A DNA stretch of 64,000 bases. It comes from Candidatus Bathyarchaeota archaeon. GTDB taxonomy: Archaea; Thermoproteota; Bathyarchaeia; Bathyarchaeales; Bathycorpusculaceae. Numbering within the stretch: the stretch's first letter is position 1; each line of letters begins with the position of its first letter. The translations under genes were made by a program, and so were the position numbers. The notes beneath the pieces were generated by a model. That model worked only from the letters and a program-made list of their open reading frames with translations, was not told the DNA's origin and did no database searches. The stretch is taken from the NCBI GenBank assembly GCA_963733095.1, contig CAVTBV010000013.1:288001-352000 (forward strand), in the 5' to 3' direction. Shown here piece after piece: positions 41,852-59,344 of this stretch.

Positions 41852-42071
41852 TAACCAATAATCAGCCAAGTTAGCATAGAAGCTTTTAGCCAAAATCACT
41901 ATTCGCGAACTTTTCCGAGTAATTATTACAGAAATAAGGGGTTAATTTATTAGAATGACAACCTTTCACTTCTTAAAGTAAATAGGTGAGTAATTGAGAA
42001 TACAAATGCAAACTGTGTACTTGCTATCTCCCATGACAAAAAAGTATACAAGCTTTAGTAAGCTCGGAGCT

Positions 42072-42087
42072 ATGTATATCAAGGTAT
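42072..42087 (+). repeat. attR core ATGTATATCAAGGTAT, overlapping the putative por TATA box
   Basis: Exact match to 28105-28120; ends 40 bp before the porG start. Confidence 0.8.
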
Positions 42088-42127
42088 TCGCCATTTTACT
42101 GACGAAAGACTTAGTGAAGGGATTGCT

Positions 42128-42691: not shown

Positions 42692-42972
42692 GTAGTAAAG
42701 AAAAAACTTGGAAAGAAATCTCCATTGCAGGAGTCTGCCCTAAATCAAGCGTTGGATTTATGACTGGCGACTGGAAAACTTACATGCCTGTGCGTGACCT
42801 CGAAAAATGCACAGTTTGCTTAACTTGCACTATGTTTTGTCCAGAAGGCGCAATCGACTGGAGACCTGAACTTGGAAAAATCGATTTTAACTTCAGCTTC
42901 TGCAAAGGCTGCGGAATATGCGCCAACGAATGCCCGACTAAAGCAATAACGATGAAAATACCTGAGGAATAA
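42688..42972 (+). CDS. porD: POR delta subunit (2x[4Fe-4S])
   Basis: TGDWKTYMP, CTVCLTCTMFCP, CKGCGICANECP. Confidence 0.95.
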   Translation: MSSKEKTWKEISIAGVCPKSSVGFMTGDWKTYMPVRDLEKCTVCLTCTMFCPEGAIDWRPELGKIDFNFSFCKGCGICANECPTKAITMKIPEE

Positions 42973-42976
42973 GAAA

Positions 42977-44212: not shown

Positions 44213-44225
44213 GGAGGAAAACAAG

Positions 44226-45188
44226 TTGACTACACAAGAATGGAGATTTACAGCAAAGGACATCGCTTCAAAACCTGACCTGTTCTTATCAGGACATCGT
44301 GCCTGTGCAGGCTGTGGACCCGCAGCTGCCCTGCGTTTGATAATGAAGGCTACCCGTGGACCTACAATCGTAACTCAAGCAACAGGTTGCATGGAGGTAG
44401 TTTCTTCAATCTACCCCTACACCTCTTGGGCTGTACCGTGGTTACATACGGCTTTCGAGAACGCTGCCGCAAACGCTTCAGGTATCGACGCCGCCCTAAA
44501 AGCCCTGCGTAGGAAAGGTCAAATCAAAGAACATATCGACATTATTGCGTTTGCAGGCGATGGCGGAACCTACGACATTGGCTTGCAAGCATTGTCGGGC
44601 GCGGTGGAACGTGGACATGACTTTCTCTTTATACTCTATGACAACGAAGGCTACATGAACACTGGCATCCAACGTAGCAGTTCAACCCCCCTCGGCGCCG
44701 CAACAACCACGACCCCTGCAGGCTCCGTGATTCCAGGCAAACTGGAGAAGAAAAAACCGATAACTGAAATCATGCTCGCCCACGAAATGGAATACGTCGC
44801 AACCGCAACCCCCTACTACTGGAAAGACATGCTCACCAAAGTCCGCAAAGGACTAGAAGTCGAAGGCCCCGCATTCCTTCACGTGTTTGCTCCTTGCCCC
44901 CGTGGCTGGAGAAGCGAACCCGCAAAAACAATGGAATACAGCAAACTAGCGGTTGAGTCATGTGTGTTTCCAATCTGGGAAGCCGTCAACGGCAAACGAA
45001 CCCTCTCAATACCCAGCAAACTCATCGCATTAGCACCGCAGAAAAAAAAACCTGTCAAAGCATACCTTGAAGGACAAGGCAGATTCCGCCACCTCTTCAC
45101 ACCAAAGAACTCACAAATAATCGACCAAATCCAACAAACCACTGACGAACGCTGGCAACGTCTCCTCAAAAAATGCGAGTTCCCCTAA
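44226..45188 (+). CDS. porB: POR beta subunit (TPP-binding)
   Basis: GHRACAGCG, GDGGTYDIG...YDNEGYMNTGIQRS, APCPRGW. Confidence 0.95.
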   Translation: MTTQEWRFTAKDIASKPDLFLSGHRACAGCGPAAALRLIMKATRGPTIVTQATGCMEVVSSIYPYTSWAVPWLHTAFENAAANASGIDAALKALRRKGQIKEHIDIIAFAGDGGTYDIGLQALSGAVERGHDFLFILYDNEGYMNTGIQRSSSTPLGAATTTTPAGSVIPGKLEKKKPITEIMLAHEMEYVATATPYYWKDMLTKVRKGLEVEGPAFLHVFAPCPRGWRSEPAKTMEYSKLAVESCVFPIWEAVNGKRTLSIPSKLIALAPQKKKPVKAYLEGQGRFRHLFTPKNSQIIDQIQQTTDERWQRLLKKCEFP

Positions 45189-45569
45189 CTTTCCTTTATT
45201 TTTGTATAGTTTTATATTAAATATGGACTTTAGGTCTTTTTAGTTTTTTTAGAGCATGTTAACCCTTGGAAAACGACGTGCTAATGGGTTGGTTTAATGC
45301 CTAGATTAAGTGGGAACATAGTATTTTCAGTAAGTTGTATTTGCAAAAGTTTTTTGTTAGTGTTGGGTTTTTTGGTTGGTTATGTGTGTTGGCTGTCCAC
45401 TTGCCATCCGTATCGAGGAGAAAGGAGAAGGCTTCGAAAACGGAAAATTGTTTTGGCGTGGTGGTGTAGCCTTCAACCCTAACCAATCCTCCAATCACTA
45501 ACAAGACTTAAGATAATGTGATTAAAATATATGGCTTATGAAAAGAGAATCAGGAGTACAAATACTGAT

Positions 45570-46133
45570 TTAGCCTACAGCCAACGCGCCTTCGAGAATG
45601 CTTCGTTCAGAAACTTCAAGCTGCTTTGAGAGCCATGTCTTGAGTATTGCTGAGAACTCTGGAAGTGCTCCGCTGTAGATGATTATTTGGTTGCCTTTGA
45701 GGGCATTGGCTTGGAAGACTTTTTCGTATTCTTTGAAGCTAAAGGAGAGGGTTTGGGCTCTGAAGGCTAGATTTTGGAAGTCTTCCCATTGTTTGCACCT
45801 TAAAACTATGGACTGAGTGCCCGCCACCAACTCGGTAACTGCAGGTGCTTCAGGACTTTGTTGTTCCTTAACAGCAATTGCACATAGTTGTGCTTCTTTG
45901 GGGGCGTTGGATAACTGTCCGATTAGGCTTGTGACTTCTTTTTGTAAGGCATCTATTTTTCCTTCCACTTTCTCGACTTTGCCGGTTAATTCGCTGGTGT
46001 CTCCCATCTGTTCGGTAACGGTTGCCAGCTCGCTTATGAGTTTGTCGAGGTCTTTTTCGTGCTCTTTGAGGACGTTTACTATGAAGTCTAAGGCCTCTAA
46101 GGCATCGTCTTTTGATTGTGGACTTTTTGCCAA
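45570..46133 (-). CDS. coiled-coil hypothetical protein, paralog of 5049-5618
   Basis: End-to-end similarity with the 5049 ORF. Confidence 0.8.
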   Translation of the reverse strand: MAKSPQSKDDALEALDFIVNVLKEHEKDLDKLISELATVTEQMGDTSELTGKVEKVEGKIDALQKEVTSLIGQLSNAPKEAQLCAIAVKEQQSPEAPAVTELVAGTQSIVLRCKQWEDFQNLAFRAQTLSFSFKEYEKVFQANALKGNQIIIYSGALPEFSAILKTWLSKQLEVSERSILEGALAVG

Positions 46134-46293
46134 GTTATTCTACCCCACCGTTTAGTACTTTGTTGTGGTTGTTGATAGATAAAGCTAGCGAATTGTCAAA
46201 TAGTATCGTTGCAACGCTTCGACCGTATTGATTGGCAATACTTAATACTTAATAGGGTTGTGGATGCGCTCAACAACAAAACACAAAAACAAC

Positions 46294-47088
46294 CTAAATC
46301 CTAACTCTCCTACGAGCAAACACCCCAAAACCAACCACAACCGCCACCAAACAAACCCCAACCAAAACCCACCAAACATTTCCCAACGAAAAACCAGAAA
46401 CTGACGCCCCAGACACCTGCTGATCACTCTCCGGCAAAGTAACATTGGTTGGCGCAACAGTCGGCTCAACAATTGTCGAGTTGATTGTTGGGTCGGGAGT
46501 TGAGGTTAGTTGCTGTTGAGTTGGCTGTGGGGAAGGCTGGGTTATCGGGATATCTGTTGATGGCCGAAACTGCTGGAACGCGCTTAGACTTGGGGTTCCA
46601 GCTATGGCGACGCTGAGGATTTGGGTGCCCAGGGCTATTTGGGTAATCATGGATATCCATAGGTTGCCGTTAGAGTCGGGAACAACCAAACGCAGCGTCT
46701 CAGAAAGCGGTAAGCCACCTAAGTCGTAGGCAACTATCACATCTGGGCGCAGTGCCATTTCTATCGGGATGCTGACAGAGTATCCGTCTTGGGCTTTAAA
46801 ATCAACCAATGTTGCAGAGGGATCCAAGCCCGCCACGTTTAGTAGGTCGGAGAGTTTTACGCCTTCCCATTCCCCACTTGAAATTGGGACGCCGTAGCAT
46901 TTGAGATCGGCGTAGACGGTGGTTTTGGGCATGGCTAGTAGGTCTTGGTAGGTGAGGCTGGTGGTTGATGAGGTGAGGTTTGTTATTTGCAAGGTCCACT
47001 GGGTTTGTGCGGAGGCTACTGCTGTGGTTGCGAGTGGGATGGTTAGTAGGGCTAAAATGAGGCTTGTTGCGGGAATTTTGTTTTTCGT
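46294..47088 (-). CDS. secreted, C-terminally anchored sulfite-oxidase-family molybdopterin oxidoreductase domain; apparent ACG start
   Basis: DLKCYG (Mo-ligand Cys), WEGVKLSDLL, AQDGYSVSI, LRLVVP..G..W; in-frame signal peptide extends upstream of the track start to ACG at 47088 behind GGAGG. Confidence 0.8.
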   Translation of the reverse strand, partial: TKNKIPATSLILALLTIPLATTAVASAQTQWTLQITNLTSSTTSLTYQDLLAMPKTTVYADLKCYGVPISSGEWEGVKLSDLLNVAGLDPSATLVDFKAQDGYSVSIPIEMALRPDVIVAYDLGGLPLSETLRLVVPDSNGNLWISMITQIALGTQILSVAIAGTPSLSAFQQFRPSTDIPITQPSPQPTQQQLTSTPDPTINSTIVEPTVAPTNVTLPESDQQVSGASVSGFSLGNVWWVLVGVCLVAVVVGFGVFARRRVRI

Positions 47089-47186
47089 TTGTTTTCCTCC
47101 CTAAATATGACGCGCGTCATACCTTTTATACCTTTACTAAAACCCCGAAAAACCAACTGAAAACCAAAAAACACAAACCCAGCTAA

Positions 47187-48197
47187 TCAAACCAGCTTTA
47201 ACTTTTCCTTAAAAACTGTCCGCACATCCTCAACAGCATTCCCACCCTCAATCAGCCCAAACCTATCCAAAAAAGCCAAAACATCCTCAAAACTAACCTT
47301 AACACTTGAACTATTAGCTAAACCCAGCAAGAAACCCTCAAGCGCCAAACGCTCCCTCCCACTGTCCTTCTCATCGATAACCCTAGCAAACAACAGATCA
47401 TTCAACGTGTAATAAGCACCAATCACAGTCTTCGCAATATCAAAATCACCCTTTCCATTATCCTCGGGTTTTAGGTTGTCAAAGTACTCATAGATCGTTT
47501 TTAGGATGGCGTAGGCTTCTTTGGAGGTTTCTTTGGGAACCTGTCGTTTGATGGCTGCGGAGAGGTTGGAGAAGTCTACATTCAGGGGCGCAAGGGTTTG
47601 TTCATCAAAGCTCAGGATGCCGCCTAAACCTTCCGCGGCGCTTTCGAGGCTTGCCCAATCAATCCGTTTCCCATGCAGCCTCATCAAAACATCGAAGCAC
47701 AAATCCACAGCGCCCATTGAAGCGTCAATTGCGGTGGTGAGGTCGCTTTTTCTTTGCCTGGCTTTTTCGGTTCCCTCATCTGTTTTGGTCTGATCTACAA
47801 GTAAAGCTTGAATCTGTTCACGCAGTGAATCAAATGACTCAGACTTCTTCTTTAGAACAAAAGCGTAAACCACACCATTCCAAGTTACGCTTAAGTCGTT
47901 GCTGCCGAAGCTTTCAACGCTCCCTATATCCGCTATGGGTATTTCTTTGAGGAGCACCCAACGTTTTTTTGGGAAGCCTTTTGCAGCAAAAAACTTGATG
48001 ATGTTGTCGGTAAGTTCGTATTTGTCTATGGCGAGTCCTTTGGGTTTTGGTTTGGGCTTGGCTGTTTTCTCTTGGATTGGCTGGGTTTCTTTCCGGCGTC
48101 CAAACATCAACGGGAACGCTATGGTGGTGATTGCTGGAGCAAAAGTGAAATCAGTGCTTTTTGATTGAAAGTCGATTGGGTGCTGTTTATTTTTCAT
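47187..48197 (-). CDS. hypothetical protein (PH-like N-terminus, helical C-terminus); start uncertain
   Basis: 336-aa ORF co-oriented with the redox cluster. Confidence 0.7.
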   Translation of the reverse strand: MKNKQHPIDFQSKSTDFTFAPAITTIAFPLMFGRRKETQPIQEKTAKPKPKPKGLAIDKYELTDNIIKFFAAKGFPKKRWVLLKEIPIADIGSVESFGSNDLSVTWNGVVYAFVLKKKSESFDSLREQIQALLVDQTKTDEGTEKARQRKSDLTTAIDASMGAVDLCFDVLMRLHGKRIDWASLESAAEGLGGILSFDEQTLAPLNVDFSNLSAAIKRQVPKETSKEAYAILKTIYEYFDNLKPEDNGKGDFDIAKTVIGAYYTLNDLLFARVIDEKDSGRERLALEGFLLGLANSSSVKVSFEDVLAFLDRFGLIEGGNAVEDVRTVFKEKLKLV

Positions 48198-48283
48198 AAC
48201 TATCTATTCTTTCTTAGGGCTCTTTTGTTTATAAATTGATGCATAGATTAACCGATGCGTCCAATCGGGCTGTTGCTGAGAAA

Positions 48284-48571
48284 TTAACGTGGGTTCCAAA
48301 CACATTTGATGGCTTTTGCTTCACAAGCCAAAATGCAGGGGGTGTTGTTGGTTACGGGTTTGCAGGCGGCGCAGGTGTACTTTATTTTTTTTCGGTGTTC
48401 CTCTGCGATGGCTGCAACGGTTTTGTCTTCAAGGTCGATGAATTCGGTTTGCAGTTTAAGGGCTGTTTGGGGACATTTTTGTGTGCATTTACCACAGCCG
48501 CTGCATTTGTCAGAGTCTATTACGATGAAGTATTCGCCTGAACCGTCACTATAGCCATAGTACGTAATCAC
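48284..48571 (-). CDS. ferredoxin of the type accompanying bzd-type benzoyl-CoA reductase clusters
   Basis: GTG start 4 bp after the activator stop; YYGYSDGSGEYFIVIDSDKCSGCGKCTQKCP; CAACKP...PCILAC. Confidence 0.85.
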   Translation of the reverse strand: MITYYGYSDGSGEYFIVIDSDKCSGCGKCTQKCPQTALKLQTEFIDLEDKTVAAIAEEHRKKIKYTCAACKPVTNNTPCILACEAKAIKCVWNPR

Positions 48572-48575
48572 GGTA

Positions 48576-49481
48576 TCAGCTGCCCTTTTGTGCCTTATCA
48601 TAGAGCGCTTTGGCCAACAACGCTGCGCCCAATGCTCCCGCGACCATGGGGTCTAAAGCTCCTTCCTCCCGCCAATTGGGCGTTGGAAGACACTTTACGC
48701 CAAGAATAACTTCAATTCTGCTCACGATACCGATGTTCTTTGATTGCCCGCCCGTGACAACCAATTCCCGCTCCAAGCCTACCCGGTTGATTAAGTTAGC
48801 CATACGAACCGCCATCGCCCGGGTGTAGGCAGCTAAAACTTTTTCTCTTGTCCAACCCTTACGTAGCAAACCCATGGCTTCCGTCTTTGCGAAGGCGACA
48901 CATGTGCAACTAACTGGTTCAGGTTCTTTTTCCACTTTTAAGGATATGTCGCCGATTTCTTCGATGGGAATCTGCAGTAAATCTGCGAAGACTTCCATGC
49001 CTCTGCCTGTTCCAGCTGCGCATTTGTCGTTCATAAGGAAGGAGACAACTCTGCCTGTTTCGTCGATGCGGATGGCTTTGATGTCTTGTCCGCCGACGTC
49101 AAGGACTGTTCGGACGGTGGGTCCCCAAATGTAGTTGGCGCCTTTTGCGTGGCAAGCGATTTCGGTTATGGCTTTATTTGCCATGGGCACGTTTACGCGT
49201 CCATATCCTGTGCCAACTATGTATTTGAGGTCGCTGACTTTGAGCCCTGTGCCTTCGAGGGCATAGTTGAGTGCTTTTGTTGCGCTTTCAGGACTGTTGG
49301 CGCCTGTGCGGGTAATCCCCCAACTGTAAGCTTCGCCGTTAACCATTACGGCAGCTTTAGAGCCCACTGAACCCACATCGACACCTGCAGTGATTATGTC
49401 TTTGTTGGTCCATTTCTTGTTCGGCATTATGCGATGGTATTCTTTCCAACGCCAGAATTCTGCTGGTTTTGTGCTGCTCAT
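48576..49481 (-). CDS. bzdQ: ATP-dependent activator subunit (ASKHA), BzdQ-like
   Basis: N-terminal EFWRWKE extension, GVDVGS, TGYGR, EIACHAKG, DVGGQDIKAI, NDKCAAGTG, CVAFAKTE. Confidence 0.75.
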   Translation of the reverse strand: MSSTKPAEFWRWKEYHRIMPNKKWTNKDIITAGVDVGSVGSKAAVMVNGEAYSWGITRTGANSPESATKALNYALEGTGLKVSDLKYIVGTGYGRVNVPMANKAITEIACHAKGANYIWGPTVRTVLDVGGQDIKAIRIDETGRVVSFLMNDKCAAGTGRGMEVFADLLQIPIEEIGDISLKVEKEPEPVSCTCVAFAKTEAMGLLRKGWTREKVLAAYTRAMAVRMANLINRVGLERELVVTGGQSKNIGIVSRIEVILGVKCLPTPNWREEGALDPMVAGALGAALLAKALYDKAQKGS

Positions 49482-50263
49482 TTCTGTGCCCCCTTTGCGC
49501 GTGTAGCAGCAATTAAAGCGGCGCCCAATGCTCCCGTGTATTCGGGGTTTTCTGGAATTGTAACGTTCATGCCTAATTTGCGGTTTAATGATGCTATAAA
49601 ACCGGGGTCTTTAGCAACGCCGCCGACCAATACGACTTCTGGGTTTATTCCTAAGCGGTGAATCATGGAGGAAATGCGGTCTGCCATTGCGTCGTAGACT
49701 GCACGGGCGATTTCGGGTTTGGATTCTTGGCGATGGATAAGAGAAACCACGTCTGATTCTCCGAATATGACGCAGGAAGCGTTGATGGGGCTTGCACGCT
49801 CCGCCTTGAGTGATAGTGGACCCATATCTTCCGTTTTGACTTCTAATGCTCTTGCCATGGCTTCGATGAATGCTCCTGCACCGGCGGCGCAGCGTTCGTT
49901 GACGACGAAGTCAGCCATGATGCCTTTTTCGTCGCATTTTACTGCTCTTGCCTCTTCGGCGCCGACATCTATGATTGTTCGGGCATTTGGGACGAGATAT
50001 ACGCCTGCTTTTGCGTCTGCGCTCATCATGCTTACAGTGCCGTTTGCGTAGGGCGCCATATCCATGGCTGAACCGGTCGCCGCAAAATACGATATGTCGG
50101 ATAATTGGAGGTTGGCTTTGTTTAAGGCTTCTTCCACTGCTTGTTCAGCAGCTTTGGTTGGGTCAAACCCGCAGAAGGCTTGTCCCCTTCCTGAAACAAC
50201 GCCGTCTTTGAGGATTACTGCTTTAACTCTTTGCGTTCCTAAATCCATACCAACAGTGTTCAT
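49478..50263 (-). CDS. bzdP: ATP-dependent activator subunit (ASKHA), BzdP-like
   Basis: GMDLG, DVGAEEARAVK, NERCAAGAGAFIEAMARALE, NASCVIFGESDVVSLIH. Confidence 0.75.
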   Translation of the reverse strand: MNTVGMDLGTQRVKAVILKDGVVSGRGQAFCGFDPTKAAEQAVEEALNKANLQLSDISYFAATGSAMDMAPYANGTVSMMSADAKAGVYLVPNARTIIDVGAEEARAVKCDEKGIMADFVVNERCAAGAGAFIEAMARALEVKTEDMGPLSLKAERASPINASCVIFGESDVVSLIHRQESKPEIARAVYDAMADRISSMIHRLGINPEVVLVGGVAKDPGFIASLNRKLGMNVTIPENPEYTGALGAALIAATRAKGAQK

Positions 50264-50272
50264 ACATTCACC

Positions 50273-51622
50273 TTAGATGTCTACTCTTGCAGTTAACATT
50301 TCAAGGAAAGCTTCCACGCGGGTTTTCATCTGTCCTACGTCTTCCCTTGTATATTCGGTGTCAAGGTAGTATACTGGGATGTTTATTTTGTCTAGCGCTT
50401 TTTTAACGCGGGAGTATTCCATCGCGTATAGCATGCAGCCGCGAACCACGTAGTAGATGACACCTTGAACATTCCAGTCTTTGACTTTATTTAGGAGCCA
50501 GTTGATGCGGTCTTGATTGCCGTCTTTGCTGGTAAAACAAGGGCAAGTAGAAGCCATTAGATATCGCTCGCCAATCGCGTTTAGCATATCATCCATCGAC
50601 CATTCGTCGACGCCGACTGGGTCGTTGAGAATTCTCTCGCCCGAGCATAATTCGTCGGCAACGATAATTCCCAATGGATTACTTTCTTCAACTAGCGTGG
50701 GCAGTTTCCAGTTGTCAGGCCAGAACATCGGCGTGCCAGTTATCATAACTCTTGGAGTGTCCGGAGGACAAACCCACTCTTTCCGCTGCAACCTCTTCTC
50801 AAGCTCATCGCATAACGCCTCAGTTTTCTCTGTCCACCGCTTTTTGTCATCCCAAAGGAACGTTTGGTTAACAAGCATGGCGTCTCTGCCCATGATTACG
50901 GGTGGACCCTTTCGTAGTTCCTGTAGACGTCGGAACGCTTTGGTGGCTCTGTGGCTTGTTTCAATGGCTTCTTTTAGGTTTTTGCGTGTAATCTTGTTGC
51001 CTGTGAACTTCTCAATCTGGGACTTCATCTGTTTTATCTCATCGTTCCAGAAACGCAACGATTGTTTGGAATCCTTTATTCTGGGTACGTTCATGCCCCA
51101 AATGGTTTTGTAGTCGCTGAGGATTTCGCTAAGTTTAGTCATGCCATCGCAGGTTAATACGCTTATGAGAGCGTCGCTTTGTTCGAGGAAGGGTGAGAGT
51201 TCAATCATTTTAGCGCCAATGGTTGAACGGAGAACTGGACAGACTTCAACTGGAACAACTCTATCGCCGAGCTTTGATGTGTCATACCAACCTGAATTCA
51301 CACGGACAGGAATTGCATCGGCGGCTAAAATTAGTTCCGTAGGGGCAAATAGACACATGTAACCGATTACTTTTTTGCCCTTTTCTTTTTCTGCCTGAAT
51401 TTCTTCTTGGCGTTTGCCGAATAGGTTTGACATTTCGTCGAAGTACTTCATTGCTTCGGGTCTTTTAGGGTCAGCTTTTTTCATACGTTCGATGTTGTCA
51501 GCTATTACTTTTAGGGAAGCCGTTTTCATAGTGTTTTTGAGTTCATCCATTTCTTTTCGGGATACTTCAGGCATGTACCTTTTTCCAACGGTTTCGTTTG
51601 TCATTCTATTTTCCTCATTCAC
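50273..51622 (-). CDS. double-cubane-cluster-type reductase (2-hydroxyacyl-CoA dehydratase fold)
   Basis: Cys set YMCLF, EVCP, TCDG, ELCSG, TCPCF, RGC; C-terminal GQMKTRVEAFLEM. Confidence 0.8.
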   Translation of the reverse strand: MNEENRMTNETVGKRYMPEVSRKEMDELKNTMKTASLKVIADNIERMKKADPKRPEAMKYFDEMSNLFGKRQEEIQAEKEKGKKVIGYMCLFAPTELILAADAIPVRVNSGWYDTSKLGDRVVPVEVCPVLRSTIGAKMIELSPFLEQSDALISVLTCDGMTKLSEILSDYKTIWGMNVPRIKDSKQSLRFWNDEIKQMKSQIEKFTGNKITRKNLKEAIETSHRATKAFRRLQELRKGPPVIMGRDAMLVNQTFLWDDKKRWTEKTEALCDELEKRLQRKEWVCPPDTPRVMITGTPMFWPDNWKLPTLVEESNPLGIIVADELCSGERILNDPVGVDEWSMDDMLNAIGERYLMASTCPCFTSKDGNQDRINWLLNKVKDWNVQGVIYYVVRGCMLYAMEYSRVKKALDKINIPVYYLDTEYTREDVGQMKTRVEAFLEMLTARVDI

Positions 51623-52598
51623 TCTTTGATTCTTCCAACCAATTTCTTGACTTGAACATTGTCTTGTTACCTAACTTTACTTTTAGTGTTCCTTCGTATG
51701 GGCACATTTCTACGCATCGTGCACATACCATGCATTGGGAGGTTTGTATTTTTCCGCCTTTCTGCTCGTACACTTCGTTAACTTGTACCGGGCAAACTCG
51801 TTTGCAGACGCCGCATTTTGTGCATTTTTCTTCTTCTTTGTTAATGTGAAGCAGTGGAGCCCACTTAAAACCCTTGAACCTGTTTAGAACTCCAAAGGAA
51901 GCTCCTGTTGGACAGAAACGGCACCAAACGCGGCGGACAAGGAAGGAGCCAACGAGGGTTAATCCGACGAATATGATGCTTATTATTTGACCGGGGTTTG
52001 TTCCTGCCCAGGTTATGATATCTTGTACATATGGGTAGCTGAAGTTAATTCCGTTTACAATAAGGGGTGCAGTTGTCCAGGATACGATTAACGGTATCAT
52101 GGGTGCTAATAGTATGCTGTATGGGCGGAATGGACCTGCCAAGAGTTGTGCTTCCAAAACGGCGAAATCGATGTTTGGCGGCGGCTCCAAAATCCACAAT
52201 GCTATTGGCAAGAAGAGGAAGAACAATAGTATTATGTAGCGTGATTTGTGGAGGGCTTTATTGAGTCGTTCAGGGATTATTCGGTGGCGTATTTTGAGGG
52301 CTTTTCTTAGCAAGCTTTCTAAATCCATGATGAAGGCGAATGGACATAGCCAGCCGCAGAAGAATCTGCCTATGAAAAGTGACATGACGAATAGGGTGAT
52401 TAACACGTATAGGAGTGGGATTGTGTAGGAGAATATGTAGAATATGCTGGCGAAGGCGACTGCTTGGATGACAAACCTGACAAAGGTGACGCGTGTGGCT
52501 AGATTCTTTTTCCAAATCAGAATAGCAATTATCCCTGCTATTCCAAGGCCAGCTAGCACAGTCAGCCTCAATGCATCTCCCAAGATTTGTAAACTCAT
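51615..52598 (-). CDS. NapH/MauN/RdxA-like polytopic 4Fe-4S membrane protein
   Basis: GRFFCGWLCP, VWCRFCP, CTKCGVCKRVCP, CMVCARCVEMCP; 5-6 TMs. Confidence 0.9.
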   Translation of the reverse strand: MSLQILGDALRLTVLAGLGIAGIIAILIWKKNLATRVTFVRFVIQAVAFASIFYIFSYTIPLLYVLITLFVMSLFIGRFFCGWLCPFAFIMDLESLLRKALKIRHRIIPERLNKALHKSRYIILLFFLFLPIALWILEPPPNIDFAVLEAQLLAGPFRPYSILLAPMIPLIVSWTTAPLIVNGINFSYPYVQDIITWAGTNPGQIISIIFVGLTLVGSFLVRRVWCRFCPTGASFGVLNRFKGFKWAPLLHINKEEEKCTKCGVCKRVCPVQVNEVYEQKGGKIQTSQCMVCARCVEMCPYEGTLKVKLGNKTMFKSRNWLEESKSE

Positions 52599-52610
52599 AT
52601 TTTCTCCCCA

Positions 52611-53312
52611 TTACTGCAATTGAATTGCTGAACTTACTATTGTAATTATTCCAAGTGCTACCAACACAGTGGCGCCTGCTATTGAAATCCACATCCGAAA
52701 CAACGGCGCCTTGTTTAACAGCCAACCCGTAACCCCTCCCAACAAAAGAATGGGTGAAATGGCTGTTCCTAACCCGAACAAGACTGCGATTCCGACGCTG
52801 CCAAGCGGATTAGCGAAAGGCAACGAATAAATCAGAAGCGCAATCAATGGCGGGCAAACGATTAGTCCTCTGCTTAAACCCAAAGAAAAGGCGCCTACGT
52901 CAAACCCAAACCGCCCTATTTTCGGGGCTGCAATAATGCTTTTGGTGTCTTGTCCACTGCAGTCGCAGGGTTTTCGAGCTTTAAGAAAGATGCTTACCCC
53001 AATAACTATCGTTACTATCCCGAAGGCAAACGACGAATAAACTTGGAAGGGTGAAATCGCCGTGTCTGAAACAAATAACCTGAACAACCCGCTAAACAAC
53101 CCTATCAACCCGCCTATCAAAGCGTAAGCGAGAACTCTTCCGGAATTAAAAATCAACGTTATCTTGACGCCTTTGCCGAACCCGGCGCCCACGCCTGCGA
53201 TGTAACCGGTCACTATCGGAAGGCACGACGCGGTACAAACAACCAATCCGTACAGCAAGCCGCCTGAAAACGCTCCAAGATACGGATTAGATATGTCAGG
53301 TATCAACGACAT
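52611..53312 (-). CDS. DsbD/CcdA-like (DsbD_2, TauE-annotated) membrane protein
   Basis: GLVVCTASCLP, FNSGRVLAYALIG, PCDC, GLIVCPP, FGLGT; ~6 TMs. Confidence 0.82.
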   Translation of the reverse strand: MSLIPDISNPYLGAFSGGLLYGLVVCTASCLPIVTGYIAGVGAGFGKGVKITLIFNSGRVLAYALIGGLIGLFSGLFRLFVSDTAISPFQVYSSFAFGIVTIVIGVSIFLKARKPCDCSGQDTKSIIAAPKIGRFGFDVGAFSLGLSRGLIVCPPLIALLIYSLPFANPLGSVGIAVLFGLGTAISPILLLGGVTGWLLNKAPLFRMWISIAGATVLVALGIITIVSSAIQLQ

Positions 53313-53432
53313 GCTATGGTCTCGTTGGAAGTTTATTGTAGCAAATAACAGGGGAAAGAATTTAAATCTTACATAAATTTGGGCTAACGCTCAAGTTTGG
53401 CTACGTTAGCTGTTCCTAAAAAAGGAAGATGG

Positions 53433-55661
53433 TTATGGCGCTGGTATTACGCGCGTATTGTATTCTTGGATGTATGCTAAGTGTGCTGCGTCGTAGTGGT
53501 AGGTTTCATTTGCTGGGTAGGGGAATCCGGTCATAGCCATGAAAGGCATCGGGTTTACGGTAAAGTTAAATCCGTAACCCCAGGCTCCTGGCGGGTCCTT
53601 AAACCAGCAGGCTACAACAAAGAAGTAGTCGCGTACCATTCCTGGTGCTGGGTCAGTGAGGTTGGTGGTTGAAAATTGCATGTCGACTTGGTCGCCTTGT
53701 CTTCCAATCACGAACATGTCATCAGCGCTTTGCACGAGCGGGGTTACGTCGCCGTATCGTGTGAAAGCTCCGGAAGCGTTAGAGGAAGTATCCCACATTT
53801 GACTAAGAGTTGCTGAGGTCGGCGTAAGTGTTGTTATGGTAGTGGGTTGATCTATAGACGTGTCAATTCCGATGTAGTCATAAGTTACGTTCCAGAAGTT
53901 GGTGAACCTGACTTGATAATCGCGCACATCTGCTGGGAACAGTCCTGTTAAGTCAACCGTAAAGGTTCGGGCATTGTAGTCTGAGGGCAAAGGTATTTGT
54001 CTATTCTGAGGCGCTGGAATCCAGTTGCCGTTTGCATCTTTGATTTCCATAGTGGGTGCAGGCATTATCTGATTTGTGCCGTTTGGGATAAGTCCTTGTG
54101 CCGCTGCATCTTGGAATTGGCTTATCCAAGCATAATACGCGTCTGCAGCGCCCCAGTCAACCATCCCAGTGATTACAAGTTTTATCTCTGGAGCAACTGA
54201 CAGGTTGCCTAAGTCTAAAGTTAGTTGATTTTGAGTTATGTTATTCCATGTGCTATCGTCACCGTTGATGCCAGGTGTAAAAACTCCGTCTTTCTGCATG
54301 ATTTGAGGTAGAACGTTTTGACCTTGCTCGTTTGTGGCACTAACAGGTGACAGGAGGTTGCTGCTGTTTACTGTGTAGATTTGGCCTGTTGATCCTTTGT
54401 TGAGGTAGTTGGTCATGGATGTGTAGGCGTCGGTTCCGTTTTGGTGGTCAACAACCATCAAGTAGGCTGAATCCAAATAGAAGAGTTCGTCCCATTGCTG
54501 GGCAAGAGTCATGTCAAAGTAGCCGTTGTTAGATGCCACCAAGTTCCCGTCGAGTTTCACGTAGTCCCAAGGGTTTCCTCCACTGTTCACGATGTTGCCG
54601 TTCGAATCCATGGAGCCGACGTATCCAAGCCAACCGGGGTTTGAAACGTCAGTTACATAAGAGTATCCGGTGCCGTTCCAAACATACAGGGAAGGACACG
54701 ACGCGTACCCGCTGATTAACGTATAAGTAACTACCAGAATTAGGCGGCTTTCCAAATCGATGGTTCTCGACGGGTTTGTGTTTCCGTCGTTCCAATATGA
54801 AAATTCCAGCACTCCTGTTCCAACATTGAATGGGTTAGGCATCGATATGCTGTATTGTCCGACGGGCAGCAATTTTTGGTAGACTGTCTGGACATTTTCG
54901 CCATTTATGGTGAAGGTTAAGGCTTTGGAGCCGCCGCCTGACCGGTTGATGATGAGTGTGTGGTAGCCTGTCTGGACTACAACAAATGAACCCGTAAGTG
55001 TGTTGAGTTTAGCTGAATGTTTTCCTTCTGTTACATCGGATGCATTAACCGTGATTTGTACAGTTTGTTTTGCTCCCGCATCTAACGAGATAACTTGGGT
55101 GCCCACGATTACATCATCGATCATTGCTTTCACCGTTAACTTGTCAGGTTGATCTGATGGGTTCACTGCGTTAGCGGTAAAGGTTATGTTGTCGTAAGCC
55201 CAAATTTCGTAGGGGTCACTGATAAAGTTTGACAAAATAATTTTGCTTGATTCTGGCGGAGCGGGATTAAGGGTGAATGATCCAGTTAAATCGCCGATTT
55301 TAACGGTGTAAGTCCCTTCCACAAGTTCAATGTCGGTAAACTCTACGAGTTGTGATGAATTGCCTGCCAGCGTCACGTTCATCGTGTCTTTTACGGCATC
55401 GTTGATTTCAAGGTTTATTGTTTGGTTGCCTTCTAAGTCGCCTATATTTGTTAAGTTGACTGAAATTTGAATTGCTTCGCCCACGTAGGCTTCAGGCGGG
55501 GTTATAGAAAGATCTGTGAGGGTAAACTTTGCGGGCTTAGATCCGGTTGCAAGAGCCCCTTGGTCTTGAAGATAAAAATAGACCCCTGCGGCTGCACCGA
55601 TAATGAGCACATCAATTATTAGAATTGCTTTAAGTTTAACTAAGGCTGAGCGAGACAACAT
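53433..55661 (-). CDS. membrane-anchored extracellular protein with two CARDB/Ig domains and a large uncharacterised SCP-motif domain
   Basis: N-terminal TM; VNLTNIGDLEG CARDB; SCPSLYVWNG..YVTD, ELFYLD..LMVVDH, FTRYGDV, WFKD, PMPFMAM..FPY, EYNTR. Confidence 0.85.
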   Translation of the reverse strand: MLSRSALVKLKAILIIDVLIIGAAAGVYFYLQDQGALATGSKPAKFTLTDLSITPPEAYVGEAIQISVNLTNIGDLEGNQTINLEINDAVKDTMNVTLAGNSSQLVEFTDIELVEGTYTVKIGDLTGSFTLNPAPPESSKIILSNFISDPYEIWAYDNITFTANAVNPSDQPDKLTVKAMIDDVIVGTQVISLDAGAKQTVQITVNASDVTEGKHSAKLNTLTGSFVVVQTGYHTLIINRSGGGSKALTFTINGENVQTVYQKLLPVGQYSISMPNPFNVGTGVLEFSYWNDGNTNPSRTIDLESRLILVVTYTLISGYASCPSLYVWNGTGYSYVTDVSNPGWLGYVGSMDSNGNIVNSGGNPWDYVKLDGNLVASNNGYFDMTLAQQWDELFYLDSAYLMVVDHQNGTDAYTSMTNYLNKGSTGQIYTVNSSNLLSPVSATNEQGQNVLPQIMQKDGVFTPGINGDDSTWNNITQNQLTLDLGNLSVAPEIKLVITGMVDWGAADAYYAWISQFQDAAAQGLIPNGTNQIMPAPTMEIKDANGNWIPAPQNRQIPLPSDYNARTFTVDLTGLFPADVRDYQVRFTNFWNVTYDYIGIDTSIDQPTTITTLTPTSATLSQMWDTSSNASGAFTRYGDVTPLVQSADDMFVIGRQGDQVDMQFSTTNLTDPAPGMVRDYFFVVACWFKDPPGAWGYGFNFTVNPMPFMAMTGFPYPANETYHYDAAHLAYIQEYNTRVIPAP

Positions 55662-55869
55662 TAAACTCTACACCCTAAATTTTCCTACCATAATAAACAA
55701 GGATGAAGATTAAAGCTTTGCGCGGAAAAGCTTTCAGAGAAAAAACTGTTAACTCAAACAGTTTTCGGTGTTTGCGGCTTGGAAAAGCGGTGATTAACTG
55801 TATCTGCAAAGAATTAGGCGTTTACTTGTTGCTGTATTGGCACAATCACAAAGTTAAATATAACAATTT

Positions 55870-56661
55870 TTGGTTACTTTGAAACAAGCAAGCATGCTAT
55901 ATTTTGGAGAAATAAAAATGAAATCAAAAAAAATATTTGCTTTGACTCTGCTAACTTCACTATTAGTTTTCGCAGCGCTAAGTGCAATGAGCGTTCAAGC
56001 ACAATCTACTGCCACAGTCACAGTTTTGCAATCCATAGGCGGAACAACTGATCCCTCTGGAACTACTACCCCTGCTGACGGCACACAAGTAACATTCAAA
56101 GCGACCCCAGACGATGTCGATGTTTTCCAATACTGGGTAATAACAACTGACGCAGGATCCAGCGTAAATACCGAAAACCCCTTTACAATTCCAGTTGTTG
56201 GAGGAACCACTTACACTGTGCAAGCAGTCTTCCAACCATTGTTACCACCCCCAGGAGTTACAATTCTTCCAACTAACATGGCGACAGCAGCAATAGTCGT
56301 GGTCTTAGCTGGCGCAGGAGGAACAACAACCCCCACCCCAGGCACTTACGCTTTAGCCGATGCAACAGCACTTGATCTAACAGCCACCCCAGACAGCGGA
56401 TGGACATTCTCACACTGGGTTATTTACGGACCAAACCTAAGCCATGGTGGTTACCCCTTCACCGCAACCCCAACAGATAACCCCTACAACGTTAACCACG
56501 GCTATGGAAACACATTCAGCTACCAACCAGTATTTACTCCCGAAGGCACAACTGAACCAACCCCAACAGTGCCCGAATTTTCTGCTTTAGCTACGATTGC
56601 CATAGCTTTGGTTCTCGTAGCGATTGCATTCGGAACAATTGCGTATAGACGCAAAAAATAA
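55870..56661 (+). CDS. secreted two-repeat surface protein with PEF-CTERM-like tail (likely start ATG 55918)
   Basis: Signal peptide; two GGTT.P...ATPD...F..W repeats; VPEFS followed by TM and RRKK. Confidence 0.82.
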   Translation: MVTLKQASMLYFGEIKMKSKKIFALTLLTSLLVFAALSAMSVQAQSTATVTVLQSIGGTTDPSGTTTPADGTQVTFKATPDDVDVFQYWVITTDAGSSVNTENPFTIPVVGGTTYTVQAVFQPLLPPPGVTILPTNMATAAIVVVLAGAGGTTTPTPGTYALADATALDLTATPDSGWTFSHWVIYGPNLSHGGYPFTATPTDNPYNVNHGYGNTFSYQPVFTPEGTTEPTPTVPEFSALATIAIALVLVAIAFGTIAYRRKK

Positions 56662-56860
56662 AATAATCCCTTTTTATTTTTTTATTTTAGCTATACTTAT
56701 TTTTTTTAGCTATATTTTACTTAATCTCCCTCTTGGGTACCTTCTATAAGCAAATTTTTTGCATTAATTTTTGGGCAGTTCGAAATCTGCTTTTTGACGT
56801 TATCAGCTGCAAAAAATGCATTAGACACCGTGTTTTTAGGGTCAAATTTTGCTTTTGATT

Positions 56861-58231
56861 TTAGGGGCATTCAGGCTCCATATGAACCGTAACCACAGCG
56901 TTGGCAAAGCGCTCTTTAATTTCCTTCTCAATCTGTGAGGCTATCCTATGCGCATCCTTCACCTGAACCTTTTTGGTGAAGCAACAGTCAATGTTGATGT
57001 AACGTTTGTCACCTCCGGTGTAAGTTATAACTCTCTTAATTCGCAGATCACTTGCAATGTTTTTTGCAACATCGTTTACGACTTTTCTTAGTTGCGCCTC
57101 ACTTACCTCTTGAGCGGGAATAGCCACTCCTGCAGGTTCAACATGCACAGTGACGTTTTCAAGTGACTTAATCTCAGCATGCATTCTGTCTTCTATGTTT
57201 TCAGCGATTTTATGAGACTCTTCCACCGATAACTCAGGGTTAACATATGCATGTAGCGTAATGTACAGTTTGCCCCCGACGTAGATTGTTGAGATTTCAT
57301 GTACTTCTTTTACGCCGTCCACTGTTGCCAACTTTTCCACTAACTGGTCCATTTTTCTCTCTTTATCTGAGGGTTCAATGTGAATGGTTGCGTCCACGTT
57401 AACAAAGTAGCCTTTTAAGCAGGTTTCAATCTTTGAGGCTAACGAGTGCGCCTCTTCTAAACTCATGAGACTTGGAACTTGAACCGAGGCTTCAACAAAT
57501 ATCTTCGAACTTACCTTGCGCACTTTCAGGTTTTCGGTTTTTACCACGCCTTCACATGAGAGAATAGCTTTTCTTGTCTTTTCTACAAGGTCCTTTGACG
57601 CAGAGTCGCTTAGCTCCATCACACTGAACTTTACAAGTTTAAAGCTCAAGTAGGTAAGCATGGCTCCAAGGAAGATTGATGCAAAAGCGTCTGCTCCTGT
57701 AAAGCCAGCTAAAGCCAAGCCAAAACCTATGAGGGCAATTACAGTTGAACCTAAATCTGAAACAGCATCATAAAAACCTGCTTTCATAGATGCGCTTTGA
57801 ACATGCTGGAAACTCTTGAAAACGGTAACTCGTAACGAAGCAATGAAAATTGCATAGCCTATTGCTACGAAACCTGAGAATTCTATACCTCCATTAAGCT
57901 GTGGGGGACTTGCAAGGCGCATCACAGCTTCATAGAAAATTAAGAGTGCAACAGCAATCAACACAATACCCCCAATCAATCCGCCTATAGTCTCAAACTT
58001 TTCATGACCGTAAGTGTGCTCTTCGTCGGCGGGCTTCATTGCAGCTCGAACCGCAAAGAACAACATAACACTCGATAATGCATCTAGCAGGGCATGTAAG
58101 CCGTCACTCATTATCGCTAAGCTGTTAACCAAAAAACCTACCGTAACCTCGACTAATACAACACTAAAGATTGCAACAGCTGAAATCTTAAGTGCCTTAA
58201 GCTTGTTTTTTCCATCGAGTTGAACTTGCAT
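56861..58231 (-). CDS. cation diffusion facilitator with three C-terminal dimerisation/metal-binding domains
   Basis: SLAIMSDGLHALLD, KPADEEHTYGHEKFE; three IHIEP/VHVEP/VHMEP domain ends. Confidence 0.92.
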   Translation of the reverse strand: MQVQLDGKNKLKALKISAVAIFSVVLVEVTVGFLVNSLAIMSDGLHALLDALSSVMLFFAVRAAMKPADEEHTYGHEKFETIGGLIGGIVLIAVALLIFYEAVMRLASPPQLNGGIEFSGFVAIGYAIFIASLRVTVFKSFQHVQSASMKAGFYDAVSDLGSTVIALIGFGLALAGFTGADAFASIFLGAMLTYLSFKLVKFSVMELSDSASKDLVEKTRKAILSCEGVVKTENLKVRKVSSKIFVEASVQVPSLMSLEEAHSLASKIETCLKGYFVNVDATIHIEPSDKERKMDQLVEKLATVDGVKEVHEISTIYVGGKLYITLHAYVNPELSVEESHKIAENIEDRMHAEIKSLENVTVHVEPAGVAIPAQEVSEAQLRKVVNDVAKNIASDLRIKRVITYTGGDKRYINIDCCFTKKVQVKDAHRIASQIEKEIKERFANAVVTVHMEPECP

Positions 58232-58959
58232 TTTGCTATTCTAATTATTGCTCTCTGCAAGGGCGATTTAAGAATTGTGGGCTTAAATGCGCCAATTGAC
58301 TTTAAAAGAAGAATTTTTTAAAATTTTGCTCTTAATTTAAATAAATTGTATGTTTCGGGTGACAATCACCCACGCAATCCCTTTTTCTTTTTTTGGAGGC
58401 TTCTTAGTTGTCTAGTGAGGCGGAGTTTACGGTTTAAGGTTTTAAGCGGCGTAAACGTGAACACCGCGCCGACAAAGGAAAAAAACACAACTATCCAGAG
58501 CAAAGAGCAGCGCCTTACACCTACTGCAAGCGGCGATTAGGGAAGCGGAACGATAAGAAACAAATTCCTATTTACTATTTTATTTAGCGTGTTACTCTGC
58601 GGAAAGGGTTTGGTGAGGCTCTGGCTCATTCTTCAGGAAGAAGGGAGAAGAAACAATAGACGCAAATCTCACTCACAGACCCAATCAGTATTGTGAGTTT
58701 GAACCAGAGCCTCAAATATTCTACCTGTTCTTTTTTCTTAAACATTTGTGGTTGCATTCTAACAGCAACAAACTATCTAGCGCGCGGCTAAGTTTTGCTT
58801 AGGGATATGGGAATTTAGGTTTAAACCCTAATCTTGGGGAATAGGTATCAGGTTAACTCAATGATGGATGATACACCGCAACAAAAAGACAGTCAAGCCC
58901 AAAACCCAACGGCGACTTTATCTTTAGTCAAAAGTGTATTTCTGTAACCTCAGCCTTTA

Positions 58960-59270
58960 GAACGACACGCAAAAACTTTGCCACCAAAATGCAGAACCCA
59001 AGACTTCTAAAAATCCATTTCCTCACTCTAAGACATTGGCTAGCAAGACGGGAATATGAAATAACAGGTAACATTTACGCTGTCAAATACCTACTAGGTC
59101 ACAAATCTATAACCAATACTGACTTCTACCAACATAGCTGCTACGTTTGTGACGACTACATAGTTAAAAGACCTAAGACCACCGAAGAAGATTCACTGAT
59201 TATCTCAGGTTTTGAATTTGTGCGGTTTGACGAAAGAGAGCAAGTGCCAATCTACAGGAAAAGGAAGTAG
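58960..59270 (+). pseudogene. C-terminal remnant of a tyrosine integrase
   Basis: QNPRLLKIHFLTLRHW (HxxR degenerate), LLGHKSITNTDFY, GFEFV...IYRKRK; N-terminal part missing. Confidence 0.8.
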
Positions 59271-59344
59271 CCATGACCCAAAAACATACGAGAATAATTA
59301 AAATTAGTCAGAATTTAAATAATTCTTAACTGATTTTATGCACA

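Follow-up and report, generated by a model that had tools for sequence, protein, structure and literature searches.

A conserved gene link between a double-cubane reductase, two membrane proteins and a surface protein in Bathyarchaeia

Introduction

What does a double-cubane reductase do when its gene lies among genes for membrane and surface proteins, and is it the benzoyl-CoA reductase (BCR) that automatic annotation would make of it? This question is raised by seven genes at positions 48284-55661 of a 64,000-nucleotide stretch of a genome of Bathyarchaeia, archaea of peat and sediment (contig CAVTBV010000013.1, positions 288,001 to 352,000; hereafter the window), which encode a catalytic protein resembling DCCP, a double-cubane protein of Carboxydothermus hydrogenoformans, together with two activator ATPases, a ferredoxin, a NapH-like and a DsbD_2 membrane protein and a surface protein. 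The source genome measures 2.84 Mb in 16 contigs and is 95.02% complete. The natural role of DCCP is still described as unknown in a 2020 review (PMC7317905) and in papers of 2022 (PMC9351452) and 2025 (PMC11971306), and it gains a concrete, testable context from the conserved association with two membrane proteins and a surface protein. Among open-access papers and preprints we found no description of a double-cubane link to NapH, to a polyferredoxin or to a Bathyarchaeia operon.

Here we propose, with about even confidence, that a six-gene operon and the adjoining surface-protein gene build a membrane-associated, ATP-driven double-cubane reductase. The link between the reductase, membrane and surface genes is well supported by sequence comparison, the firmest pairings being DCCP with the NapH-like protein and/or DsbD_2, and the NapH-like protein with the surface protein. 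New here are the co-occurrence counts across genomes, a separate NapH-like/surface gene pair in one family (f5), the extent of the surface module family with its cytochrome fusions, and an Ala common to the P-like activator chain and MbdP.

Results and discussion

Seven co-oriented genes at the locus

Gene content, putative cluster ligands, synteny and co-occurrence were all read from sequence. The seven open reading frames (ORFs) lie on the minus strand and are co-oriented, as a first-pass annotation made from the letters alone had described them, and its domain calls likewise hold in Pfam (CARDB, DsbD_2, Fer4_5, HGD-D, two unlike BcrAD_BadFG proteins and a ferredoxin with two [4Fe-4S] motifs). 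In order of transcription, with the module of the surface protein on its own line, they are:

53433..55661, minus strand: surface protein, 742 aa, whose N-terminal membrane anchor is followed by two CARDB/Ig-like domains, one more beta domain and an all-beta module of ~420 aa (CARDB, 34.1 bits)
53433-54710, minus strand: the ~420-aa module, starting at invariant Cys322 (SCPSLYxWNG)
52611..53312, minus strand: DsbD_2 membrane protein, 233 aa; its first hydrophobic segment carries CX3C and its fourth C-P-P, and one loop holds CxC (PF13386, 71 bits)
51615..52598, minus strand: NapH-like membrane polyferredoxin, 327 aa, with CX3CP, CX2CP and two CX2CX2CX3CP motifs (Fer4_5, 52.9 bits, two stretches)
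50273..51622, minus strand: six-Cys DCCP-type catalytic subunit, 449 aa (NF040772, PDB 6ENO/7YYL, Cys conservation)
49478..50263, minus strand: P-like activator subunit, 261 aa, an ASKHA ATPase with Ala at the first cluster-Cys position (TIGR00241, 191.8 bits)
48576..49481, minus strand: Q-like activator subunit, 301 aa, an ASKHA ATPase with both cluster Cys (TIGR03192 BzdQ, 362 bits, cut-off 380.2)
48284..48601, minus strand: ferredoxin, 105 aa, two [4Fe-4S] motifs, CX2CX2CX3CP and CX2CX8CX3C (Fer4 matches)

The intergenic distances are -26 bp (ferredoxin/Q), -4 bp (Q/P), 9 bp (P/DCCP), -8 bp (DCCP/NapH-like), 12 bp (NapH-like/DsbD_2) and 120 bp (DsbD_2/surface gene). Six genes therefore form a tight pack, with the overlaps or gaps of at most 12 bp noted originally, and the surface gene is set apart 120 bp upstream.

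The catalytic subunit scores as a divergent DCCP

On the NCBIfam model for double-cubane anaerobic reductases (NF040772) the DCCP-type protein scored 341.3 bits, under the equivalog cut-off of 350, and this family led the next by ~240 bits: HadC gave 102.4, BzdN 95.9 (cut-off 453.8), BcrC 62.2 and BzdO 34.2 bits (cut-off 448.6), with Pfam HGD-D at 321.5 bits. Using phmmer, the nearest solved relative was DCCP of C. hydrogenoformans (6ENO/7YYL) at 273 bits over residues 51-443, with BzdN at 86.6 bits. The protein therefore scores as DCCP and not as BzdN or BzdO, and judged by sequence the catalytic gene is that of a divergent DCCP.

Conservation of Cys was counted on rows free of stops and 0.85-1.25 times as long as the query. 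C90, C128, C158, C326, C360 and C396 align with Cys of 6ENO/7YYL, are invariant in 79 of 79 rows (the window's included), and fall in columns that are also Cys in five of five canonical Bathyarchaeia DCCP paralogues; we take them as [8Fe-9S] ligands from the 7-Cys motif in the available part of PMC7317905. The seven-Cys pattern attributed to this protein at first comes down to six of seven, the second motif Cys of DCCP being Asn109 here in the phmmer alignment to 6ENO/7YYL. This column reads Asn in 71, Ser in six, Tyr in two and Cys in none of the 79 rows, and the seventh Cys is kept in all five canonical paralogues. We assign the replaced residue to the non-ligand Cys94 of the same source, as far as its available text goes, a count along the chain giving 95. 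The alignment begins at DCCP residue 36, and therefore the N-terminal extension, which closes the CoA channel of DCCP according to the accessible part of PMC7317905, has a counterpart here.

Across 301 Bathyarchaeia genomes this DCCP type scored 318-362 bits on NF040772 and a second, canonical type 478-509 bits. In a 23-row tree the present type was a clade to itself, distinct from the canonical paralogues (support 99/99), and its neighbours were NapH-linked DCCP-like metagenome genes, a placement that is uncertain (86/84, long branches).

The canonical paralogues have a setting of their own. At L172-L176 (genomes G201, G270, G285, G141 and G091) they lie beside DsrE-like, SelD-like (AIRS/AIRS_C) and Se/S-carrier genes, with an activator gene adjacent in L172 and L176 only, and in L176 the paralogue adjoins an archaeal SelB/KTI12-like gene. 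This context fits the DCCP-SelD correlation in the available part of a preprint (10.1101/2022.07.06.499078), and the window genome is without that paralogue.

An asymmetric activator, and the benzoyl-CoA reductase question

The two unlike ATPases scored 153.9 and 174.2 bits on Pfam BcrAD_BadFG. The Q-like chain matched MbdQ at 195.3 bits, and the P-like chain matched HadI (172.7 bits) and MbdQ (167.5 bits) above MbdP (108.1 bits); in an alignment with HadI, HgdC, DCCP-R, MbdQ and MbdP, the P-like chain shares its Ala at the first cluster-Cys position with MbdP of the solved 3-methylbenzoyl-CoA reductase. The remaining Cys are conserved: C125 of the P-like chain in 77 of 77 orthologues, C110 and C154 of the Q-like chain in 75 and 76 of 76, and all eight Cys of the ferredoxin in 71 of 71. 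These two are the only activator genes in the window genome. A single HGD-D gene is present, with no second one at 95% completeness, and the best match of a genome-wide BzdO search, at 24.8 bits, lies inside this same gene. Because there is no second HGD-D gene, the two unlike activators serve this DCCP, and since the BzdO signal falls in that one gene, there is no BzdNO elsewhere to which the P/Q pair could belong. The homodimeric activator that the first-pass annotation ascribed to characterised double-cubane proteins agrees with PMC9351452. The system thus appears to join a BCR-style asymmetric activator to a DCCP-style catalytic protein.

Automatic annotation and several papers would label these genes a class I (Bzd-type) benzoyl-CoA reductase. 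The Q-like chain comes close to this on BzdQ, just under the cut-off, the cluster Cys missing from the P-like chain is also missing from MbdP, and BzdN too has an [8Fe-9S] cluster according to the accessible part of PMC11971306. The literature on Bathyarchaeia lists benzoyl-CoA reductase genes, and a 2025 review counts them among the aromatic-degradation genes of this group (PMC12694404, in its available part). Nevertheless, we regard this reading as highly improbable, given the distance of the catalytic protein from the BzdN and BzdO cut-offs and the single HGD-D gene. The model of the dearomatising ring hydrolase, TIGR03200, had no match in the window genome, where at 95% completeness absence is not proven, and the best genome-wide match to benzoate-CoA ligase (TIGR02262) was 273.3 bits against a cut-off of 375.25. 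Likewise, no CoA ligase or beta-oxidation family was found among the eight flanking ORFs scanned (42977-60589), in line with the first-pass annotation, which had seen neither CoA ligase nor dienoyl-CoA beta-oxidation genes alongside and had argued against ordinary aromatic ring reduction. A possible parallel comes from PMC10477458, in which the cultured relative Bathyarchaeum tardum, with 'BcrACD' and without BcrB, is reported to be inhibited in growth by benzoate. Genes listed as benzoyl-CoA reductase have been used as evidence for degradation of aromatics by Bathyarchaeia, a reading to which the sequence gives no support.

The membrane genes stay with the reductase while flanks change

One genome per species was scanned, and relatives turned up at 174 loci; of these the 80 best (69-95% identity) entered the counts, each gene being scored only in loci reaching far enough. 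The P gene was kept in 78 of 78 loci, the Q gene in 76 of 76 and the ferredoxin gene in 74 of 74. A NapH-like gene stood directly upstream of DCCP in 66/77 loci and a DsbD_2 gene upstream in 59/77, with both in 49/77, and one or the other was directly upstream in 76/77 (in one of these, L032, as a 38-aa NapH remnant). Beyond this core, 14 diverse loci carried unrelated housekeeping genes, and the core is therefore kept by more than common ancestry of the region. The most distant loci (L070 and L071, with DCCP at 69% identity) have all seven genes packed together, with a 4-bp overlap between the surface gene and DsbD_2. The first-pass annotation had named two findings that would speak against it, an affinity of the reductase for BzdN/O or a separate bzdNO, and a loss of synteny; we saw instead a DCCP affinity, no bzdNO elsewhere and membrane genes that remain with the reductase as the neighbourhood changes.

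Outside Bathyarchaeia we searched metagenomes with the closest long NapH paralogue (P0009 type) as bait. Five of the nine most distant NapH-like loci had a DCCP-like gene (27-37% identical) directly downstream, of which Pfam HGD-D confirms three and two rest on tblastn; two of the distant NapH/DCCP-like loci are probably bacterial, given the TonB-dependent receptors alongside. The bait paralogue itself was rejected as a part of the system, as only L106 of 71 loci holds DCCP genes.

Two further contigs, labelled Methanocella sp. (L034) and Candidatus Sulfotelmatobacter sp. (L081), carry the operon in the same order (DCCP 84% and 76% identical, respectively) and are probably Bathyarchaeia contigs in wrong bins. 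In L048, L056 and L064 DsbD_2 is directly upstream of DCCP, whereas the NapH-like gene (405-413 aa, 37-42% identical) is on the opposite strand, at the downstream side of the ferredoxin gene, and the gene after it encodes a family-less protein of 215-230 aa.

Two membrane proteins with conserved Cys

The NapH-like protein has 12 Cys, none of which varies among 62 sequences, and its second membrane motif, given as CX3CP in the first-pass annotation, reads CX2CP. The protein scored 91.2 bits on TIGR02163 (NapH/MauN; cut-off 213.05) and 86.2 bits on NF007013 (cut-off 234), and is one of three Fer4_5 proteins in the window genome. A loop of ~65 residues is predicted to face outward from hydropathy and charge. 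No Nap/Mau family was found among the 15 neighbouring ORFs scanned; a genome-wide NapA/NapG search was not made. When DCCP and the NapH-like protein were modelled as a complex, the score was 0.59 with 0.00 for the best of three controls, at least 95% of contacts agreed between runs and the partner pLDDT was at least 72. The mark used for this score was reached by 116 of 157 solved complexes and two of 215 mismatches, and values of at most 0.60 include 18 of those 157 together with both passing mismatches.

In DsbD_2, the sole gene of this kind in the window genome, C26 and C30 are kept in 53/54 sequences, C153 in 54/54, C116 in 42/54 and C118 in 49/54. By hydropathy only, C26/C30 are placed in the first and C153 in the fourth segment, and the CxC loop is predicted to be cytoplasmic. 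Close relatives are variously labelled TauE/SafE, DsbD or cytochrome c biogenesis, and some also match DsbD_TM (PF02683). Family scans of the nearby genes gave no thioredoxin-like partner.

Related gene sets were seen elsewhere. In L177 (5227-8152, genome G082) a DsbD_2 gene (188 aa) overlaps the start of an HGD-D pair (385 + 400 aa), so that in another Bathyarchaeia lineage, too, DsbD_2 accompanies a member of the HGD-D family, here a heterodimeric one. L140 (1026-5005) and L141 (3129-8199) hold a long NapH-like gene (544 aa) followed by a NosD-like gene, a Nos-accessory-like module without DCCP, and on the other strand DsbD_2 and an ABC ATPase, plus an FtsX/MacB permease in L141.

The surface protein and its module family

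Alignments for the fold models used 36 of 47 full-length surface orthologues, L024 having been dropped for a stop codon. The model of the whole protein (pLDDT 77.2) shows an anchor helix, three Ig-like domains and the all-beta module, which modelled alone reached pLDDT 85.7 and pTM 0.86. The middle of the module is a jelly roll like those of CBM32/galactose-binding domains (best Z 11.2, rmsd 3.0, 125 aligned residues, 9efk_M; many CBM32/35 at Z 8-9.3), a common fold that says little of function. Foldseek returned only generic multi-Ig arrays for the whole protein (TM ~0.1) and weak matches for the module (best E 3e-4, TM at most 0.22). The module profile and exported proteins beside the probably bacterial NapH/DCCP-like genes were unrelated by hhalign (probability 0.4%). 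The first-pass annotation had proposed an extracellular Cys protein with which electrons, sulfur or metal may be exchanged across the membrane. One Cys does stand out, C322 in S-C-P-S-L-Y-x-W-N-G being invariant in 36 of 36 aligned sequences; however, there are just two Cys in 742 residues, and C686 is missing from several orthologues. The proposed exchange is hypothetical; the models and fold comparison give beta-sandwich domains, none of them recognisable as a redox fold.

A profile of the module found 2941 cluster representatives at E<=1e-3 and 787 at E<=1e-30, mostly in proteins of 500-4500 aa, and Pfam gave nothing below 9.9e-4 on all 36 module sequences. C-P-x-L-Y-x-W stands at the module start in 132 of the top 150 representatives (P0034-P0183), and 31 of these 150 carry at least four CXXCH haem motifs (maximum 19). 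Pfam on 34 of the 150 gave a multihaem cytochrome in seven, NosD/beta-helix in six, FG-GAP/TPR (CRTAC1-like) in four and CARDB in four. One representative, P0093, is a natural fusion of signal peptide, module, membrane segment and NapH-like polyferredoxin; it is a single cluster (six member sequences, one contig) and the sole Fer4_5 carrier among the 120 listed of 197 relatives. A module with no match in the Pfam copy searched, 2941 representatives and multihaem fusions in 31 of 150 is a lead of its own for extracellular redox biology. The Protein Atlas gave scores of 0.88 to unnamed Acidobacteriota clusters and 0.80 to UnbV_ASPIC, as leads only; PF27237 is a putative label that precomputed tables list on some module relatives.

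Co-occurrence of this DCCP type and the surface protein was counted by hand from two tables covering the 301 genomes, across which the two are distributed almost identically. In family f1 (76 genomes) 49 had both, one DCCP alone, one the surface protein alone and 25 neither; in f5 the same ten genomes have both, and genus g9 is split into two genomes with both and four with neither. In f5, a sister family, the surface gene comes immediately after a NapH-like gene (53-56% identity to that of the window) in all seven genomes examined of the ten; 17-100 kb or a contig boundary separates this pair from the DCCP operon, which has its own, more distant NapH-like gene (44%). No module match was found in three genomes whose DCCP operon has DsbD_2 and lacks a NapH-like gene. 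The link of the surface protein to the system rests on co-occurrence, on adjacency to the NapH-like gene and on one fusion protein.

These Cys patterns also bear on a role in metal, metalloid or chalcogen handling, in which DsbD_2 would be a channel for a thiophile (a S, Se or soft-metal compound), the surface module would capture it, and DCCP with the NapH-like protein would reduce it at the cytoplasmic face for uptake, assimilation or detoxification. Among NapH-like proteins, CcoG acts as a cupric reductase. In DsbD_2 the membrane segments are lined by conserved Cys, with the cytoplasmic CxC loop in addition, the module has a single invariant Cys within a motif held by 132 of 150 family representatives, and TonB-dependent receptors lie beside two of the distant NapH/DCCP-like loci. 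Canonical DCCP paralogues in sister genomes lie beside SelD-like, DsrE-like and Se/S-carrier genes, to which can be added the preprint correlation cited above. However, the selenium-linked paralogue belongs to the other DCCP clade, which keeps the seventh Cys, and is missing from the window genome; none of the binding proteins, chaperones or efflux pumps of known metal systems is encoded in the operon, and the mixed labels of the DsbD_2 relatives give no specific clue. We consider such a role rather unlikely.

Proposed mechanism and what weighs against it

In the membrane-associated reductase that we favour, reduced ferredoxin would feed the heterodimeric P/Q activator, pictured as two ASKHA ATPases bridged by one [4Fe-4S] cluster on three canonical Cys, and ATP hydrolysis would push an electron onto the [8Fe-9S] cluster of the six-Cys DCCP. 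DCCP would act at the membrane together with the NapH-like protein. The Cys motifs of this polyferredoxin would face the cytoplasm, and it may double as the membrane partner of the surface protein with its single invariant Cys. DsbD_2, with CcdA-like Cys in its first and fourth hydrophobic segments, may carry either a thiophilic ion or reducing power of the thiol type across the membrane, and together with the surface module would act on the outer side. The net outcome would be that ATP-made reducing power of very low potential goes not to benzoyl-CoA but to a small substrate without CoA, or to a site, that lies at the membrane or beyond it. The protein contacts, the direction of electron flow, the substrate and electron export in this scheme are what we infer from the gene set.

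Several observations weigh against this proposal, and the first concerns the membrane step. From hydropathy and the positive-inside rule all 12 NapH-like Cys are predicted on the cytoplasmic side, the motifs being held in K/R-rich loops, and for that reason nothing shows electrons crossing the membrane; the trans-membrane electron conduit of NapH-like protein and DsbD_2 advanced in the first-pass annotation is hypothetical. The predicted contact between DCCP and the NapH-like protein lends weak support, and none of 31 longer NapH-like relatives is fused to DsbD_2, HGD-D or activator domains. The pairing of the genes is also incomplete: one locus (L047) has neither NapH-like nor DsbD_2 upstream, 17 loci have NapH-like without DsbD_2, and ten were scored as DsbD_2 without an adjacent NapH-like gene, although one of the loci so scored (L081) has a second NapH-like gene next to its DCCP. 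The long NapH paralogue of P0009 type is DCCP-linked in one of 71 close loci, many of which are short.

The surface protein is more loosely attached. Only 49 of 71 loci have its gene, co-oriented, within 5.3 kb upstream, and in two genomes with the surface gene elsewhere there was no NapH-like gene in the ~575 bp upstream examined. Co-occurrence was counted among kin, which overstates independence, and the module family is broad and mostly CRTAC1-like FG-GAP/TPR, with a NapH-like fusion in one of 150 representatives and one of 120 in the second listing. The sequence between the surface gene and DsbD_2 points the same way:

53313..53432, minus strand: spacer between the surface gene and the six-gene operon, 120 bp, read directly from the sequence

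A T-run directly follows the surface-gene stop codon, an inverted repeat reads GCTAACG...CGTTAGC, and TTTAAAT lies ~58 nt before the DsbD_2 start. We read the T-run and TTTAAAT as a putative archaeal terminator and TATA box, which suggests a separate transcript for the surface gene. A look-up of sequencing runs for 48200-55900 listed five DNA runs, the best with a 0.36 share of the words, and no RNA run.

In a rival account DCCP would be cytoplasmic and reduce a soluble small molecule, with the NapH-like protein only feeding it electrons from a membrane pool or anchoring it, and with DsbD_2 and the surface protein doing a separate envelope job, as neighbours through shared regulation or inheritance. 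The NapH-like Fe-S motifs are predicted to be cytoplasmic, the surface gene can be parted from the rest and perhaps has a promoter to itself, NapH-like and surface protein pair on their own in f5, NapH-like, NosD-like and DsbD_2 genes stand without any DCCP in L140 and L141, and characterised DCCP is a soluble two-component system according to the available part of PMC7317905. On the other side, NapH-like or DsbD_2 is directly upstream in 76/77 loci while the flanks change, DCCP and the surface protein are gained and lost jointly in f1 (49 both, 25 neither, two discordant), and a second electron input is not obviously needed because the operon encodes its own soluble ferredoxin. We judge this account somewhat unlikely, although it has more to recommend it than a metal or chalcogen role.

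The membrane-associated reductase could also be extended outward. Bathyarchaeia would then boost ferredoxin electrons with ATP far below the normal biological range and pass them via NapH-like protein and DsbD_2 to a cytochrome-free surface module, the same module that ends giant multihaem cytochromes in other microbes. We hold this extension to be rather unlikely; if true, it would mean ATP-driven reduction or activation of something extracellular, such as mineral, humic matter or refractory polymer, by an archaeal group that is among the most abundant in anoxic soil and sediment.

Neighbouring genes

Around the seven genes are subunits of a 2-oxoacid:ferredoxin oxidoreductase, a small anchored Oxidored_molyb protein, two family-less proteins, a Flg_new_2 surface protein, a cation-efflux protein and an MFS transporter. 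A candidate accessory gene is also found here:

45570..46133, minus strand: 187-aa family-less protein, predicted soluble, with invariant Cys113 and an N-terminal coiled-coil-like part

Of 63 loci, 49 carry it downstream of the operon in the same orientation, frequently as the next gene after that for the ferredoxin, and C113 is kept in 49 of 49 orthologues. Pfam gave weak coiled-coil matches only, and the Protein Atlas matched only Bathyarchaeota hypothetical proteins, which we treat as a lead only. In the protein encoded at 46294-46992 (minus strand) a linker rich in Pro and Thr joins a short Oxidored_molyb domain (74 bits) to a membrane anchor at the C-terminus; at other loci the orthologues close to the operon measure 266-276 aa, and the start may therefore be miscalled here. 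G+C content is 0.43-0.49 across 42001-58000, compared with 0.36-0.42 over most of the first 42 kb of the window.

Comparison with known systems

Compared with DCCP and its activator DCCP-R of C. hydrogenoformans (6ENO, 7YYL), the present system shares the six Cys taken as [8Fe-9S] ligands, the N-terminal extension, an ATP-dependent ASKHA activator encoded alongside and a natural substrate that is unknown in both. It differs in the Asn that takes the place of the seventh motif Cys, in a score on NF040772 just under the cut-off and in forming a clade separate from the canonical paralogues of sister genomes. Its activator consists of two unlike chains rather than a homodimer, and the operon adds a ferredoxin and the NapH-like and DsbD_2 membrane proteins.

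The benzoyl-CoA reductases BzdNOPQ and MbdONQP (8S02, 9GAI) appear to share the heterodimeric P/Q-type activator, with Ala at the first cluster-Cys position of the P chain and a Q-like chain near BzdQ. The second ferredoxin motif, CX2CX8CX3C, we also take to resemble that of low-potential BCR donors. In these enzymes, too, the double-cubane cluster is in one HGD-D subunit (PMC11971306, in its available part). In contrast, no BzdO-type subunit or pathway genes were found in the window genome, its HGD-D protein is DCCP-like and membrane partners are present.

In CcdA the redox Cys pair is in the first and fourth transmembrane segments (TM1 and TM4). The DsbD_2 protein is like CcdA/DsbD in its Pfam match and in the conserved Cys of its first and fourth hydrophobic segments, with the topology taken from hydropathy, whereas it has CX3C rather than a single Cys in TM1 and an extra cytoplasmic CxC loop. 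No thioredoxin-like partner was found nearby, and the sole conserved extracytoplasmic Cys in the vicinity is that of the surface protein.

Lastly, the clusters of NapH are cytoplasmic, and the NapH-like protein shares with NapH, NosR and CcoG the Fer4_5 Cys-Pro motifs beside membrane segments, two C-terminal [4Fe-4S] motifs and clusters predicted on the cytoplasmic side. It differs in its low scores (91.2 against 213 and 86.2 against 234), in a second motif of CX2CP and in its context, which is not that of NapA/G, NosZ or a cbb3 oxidase; its partners here are the DCCP system and a beta-sandwich surface protein.

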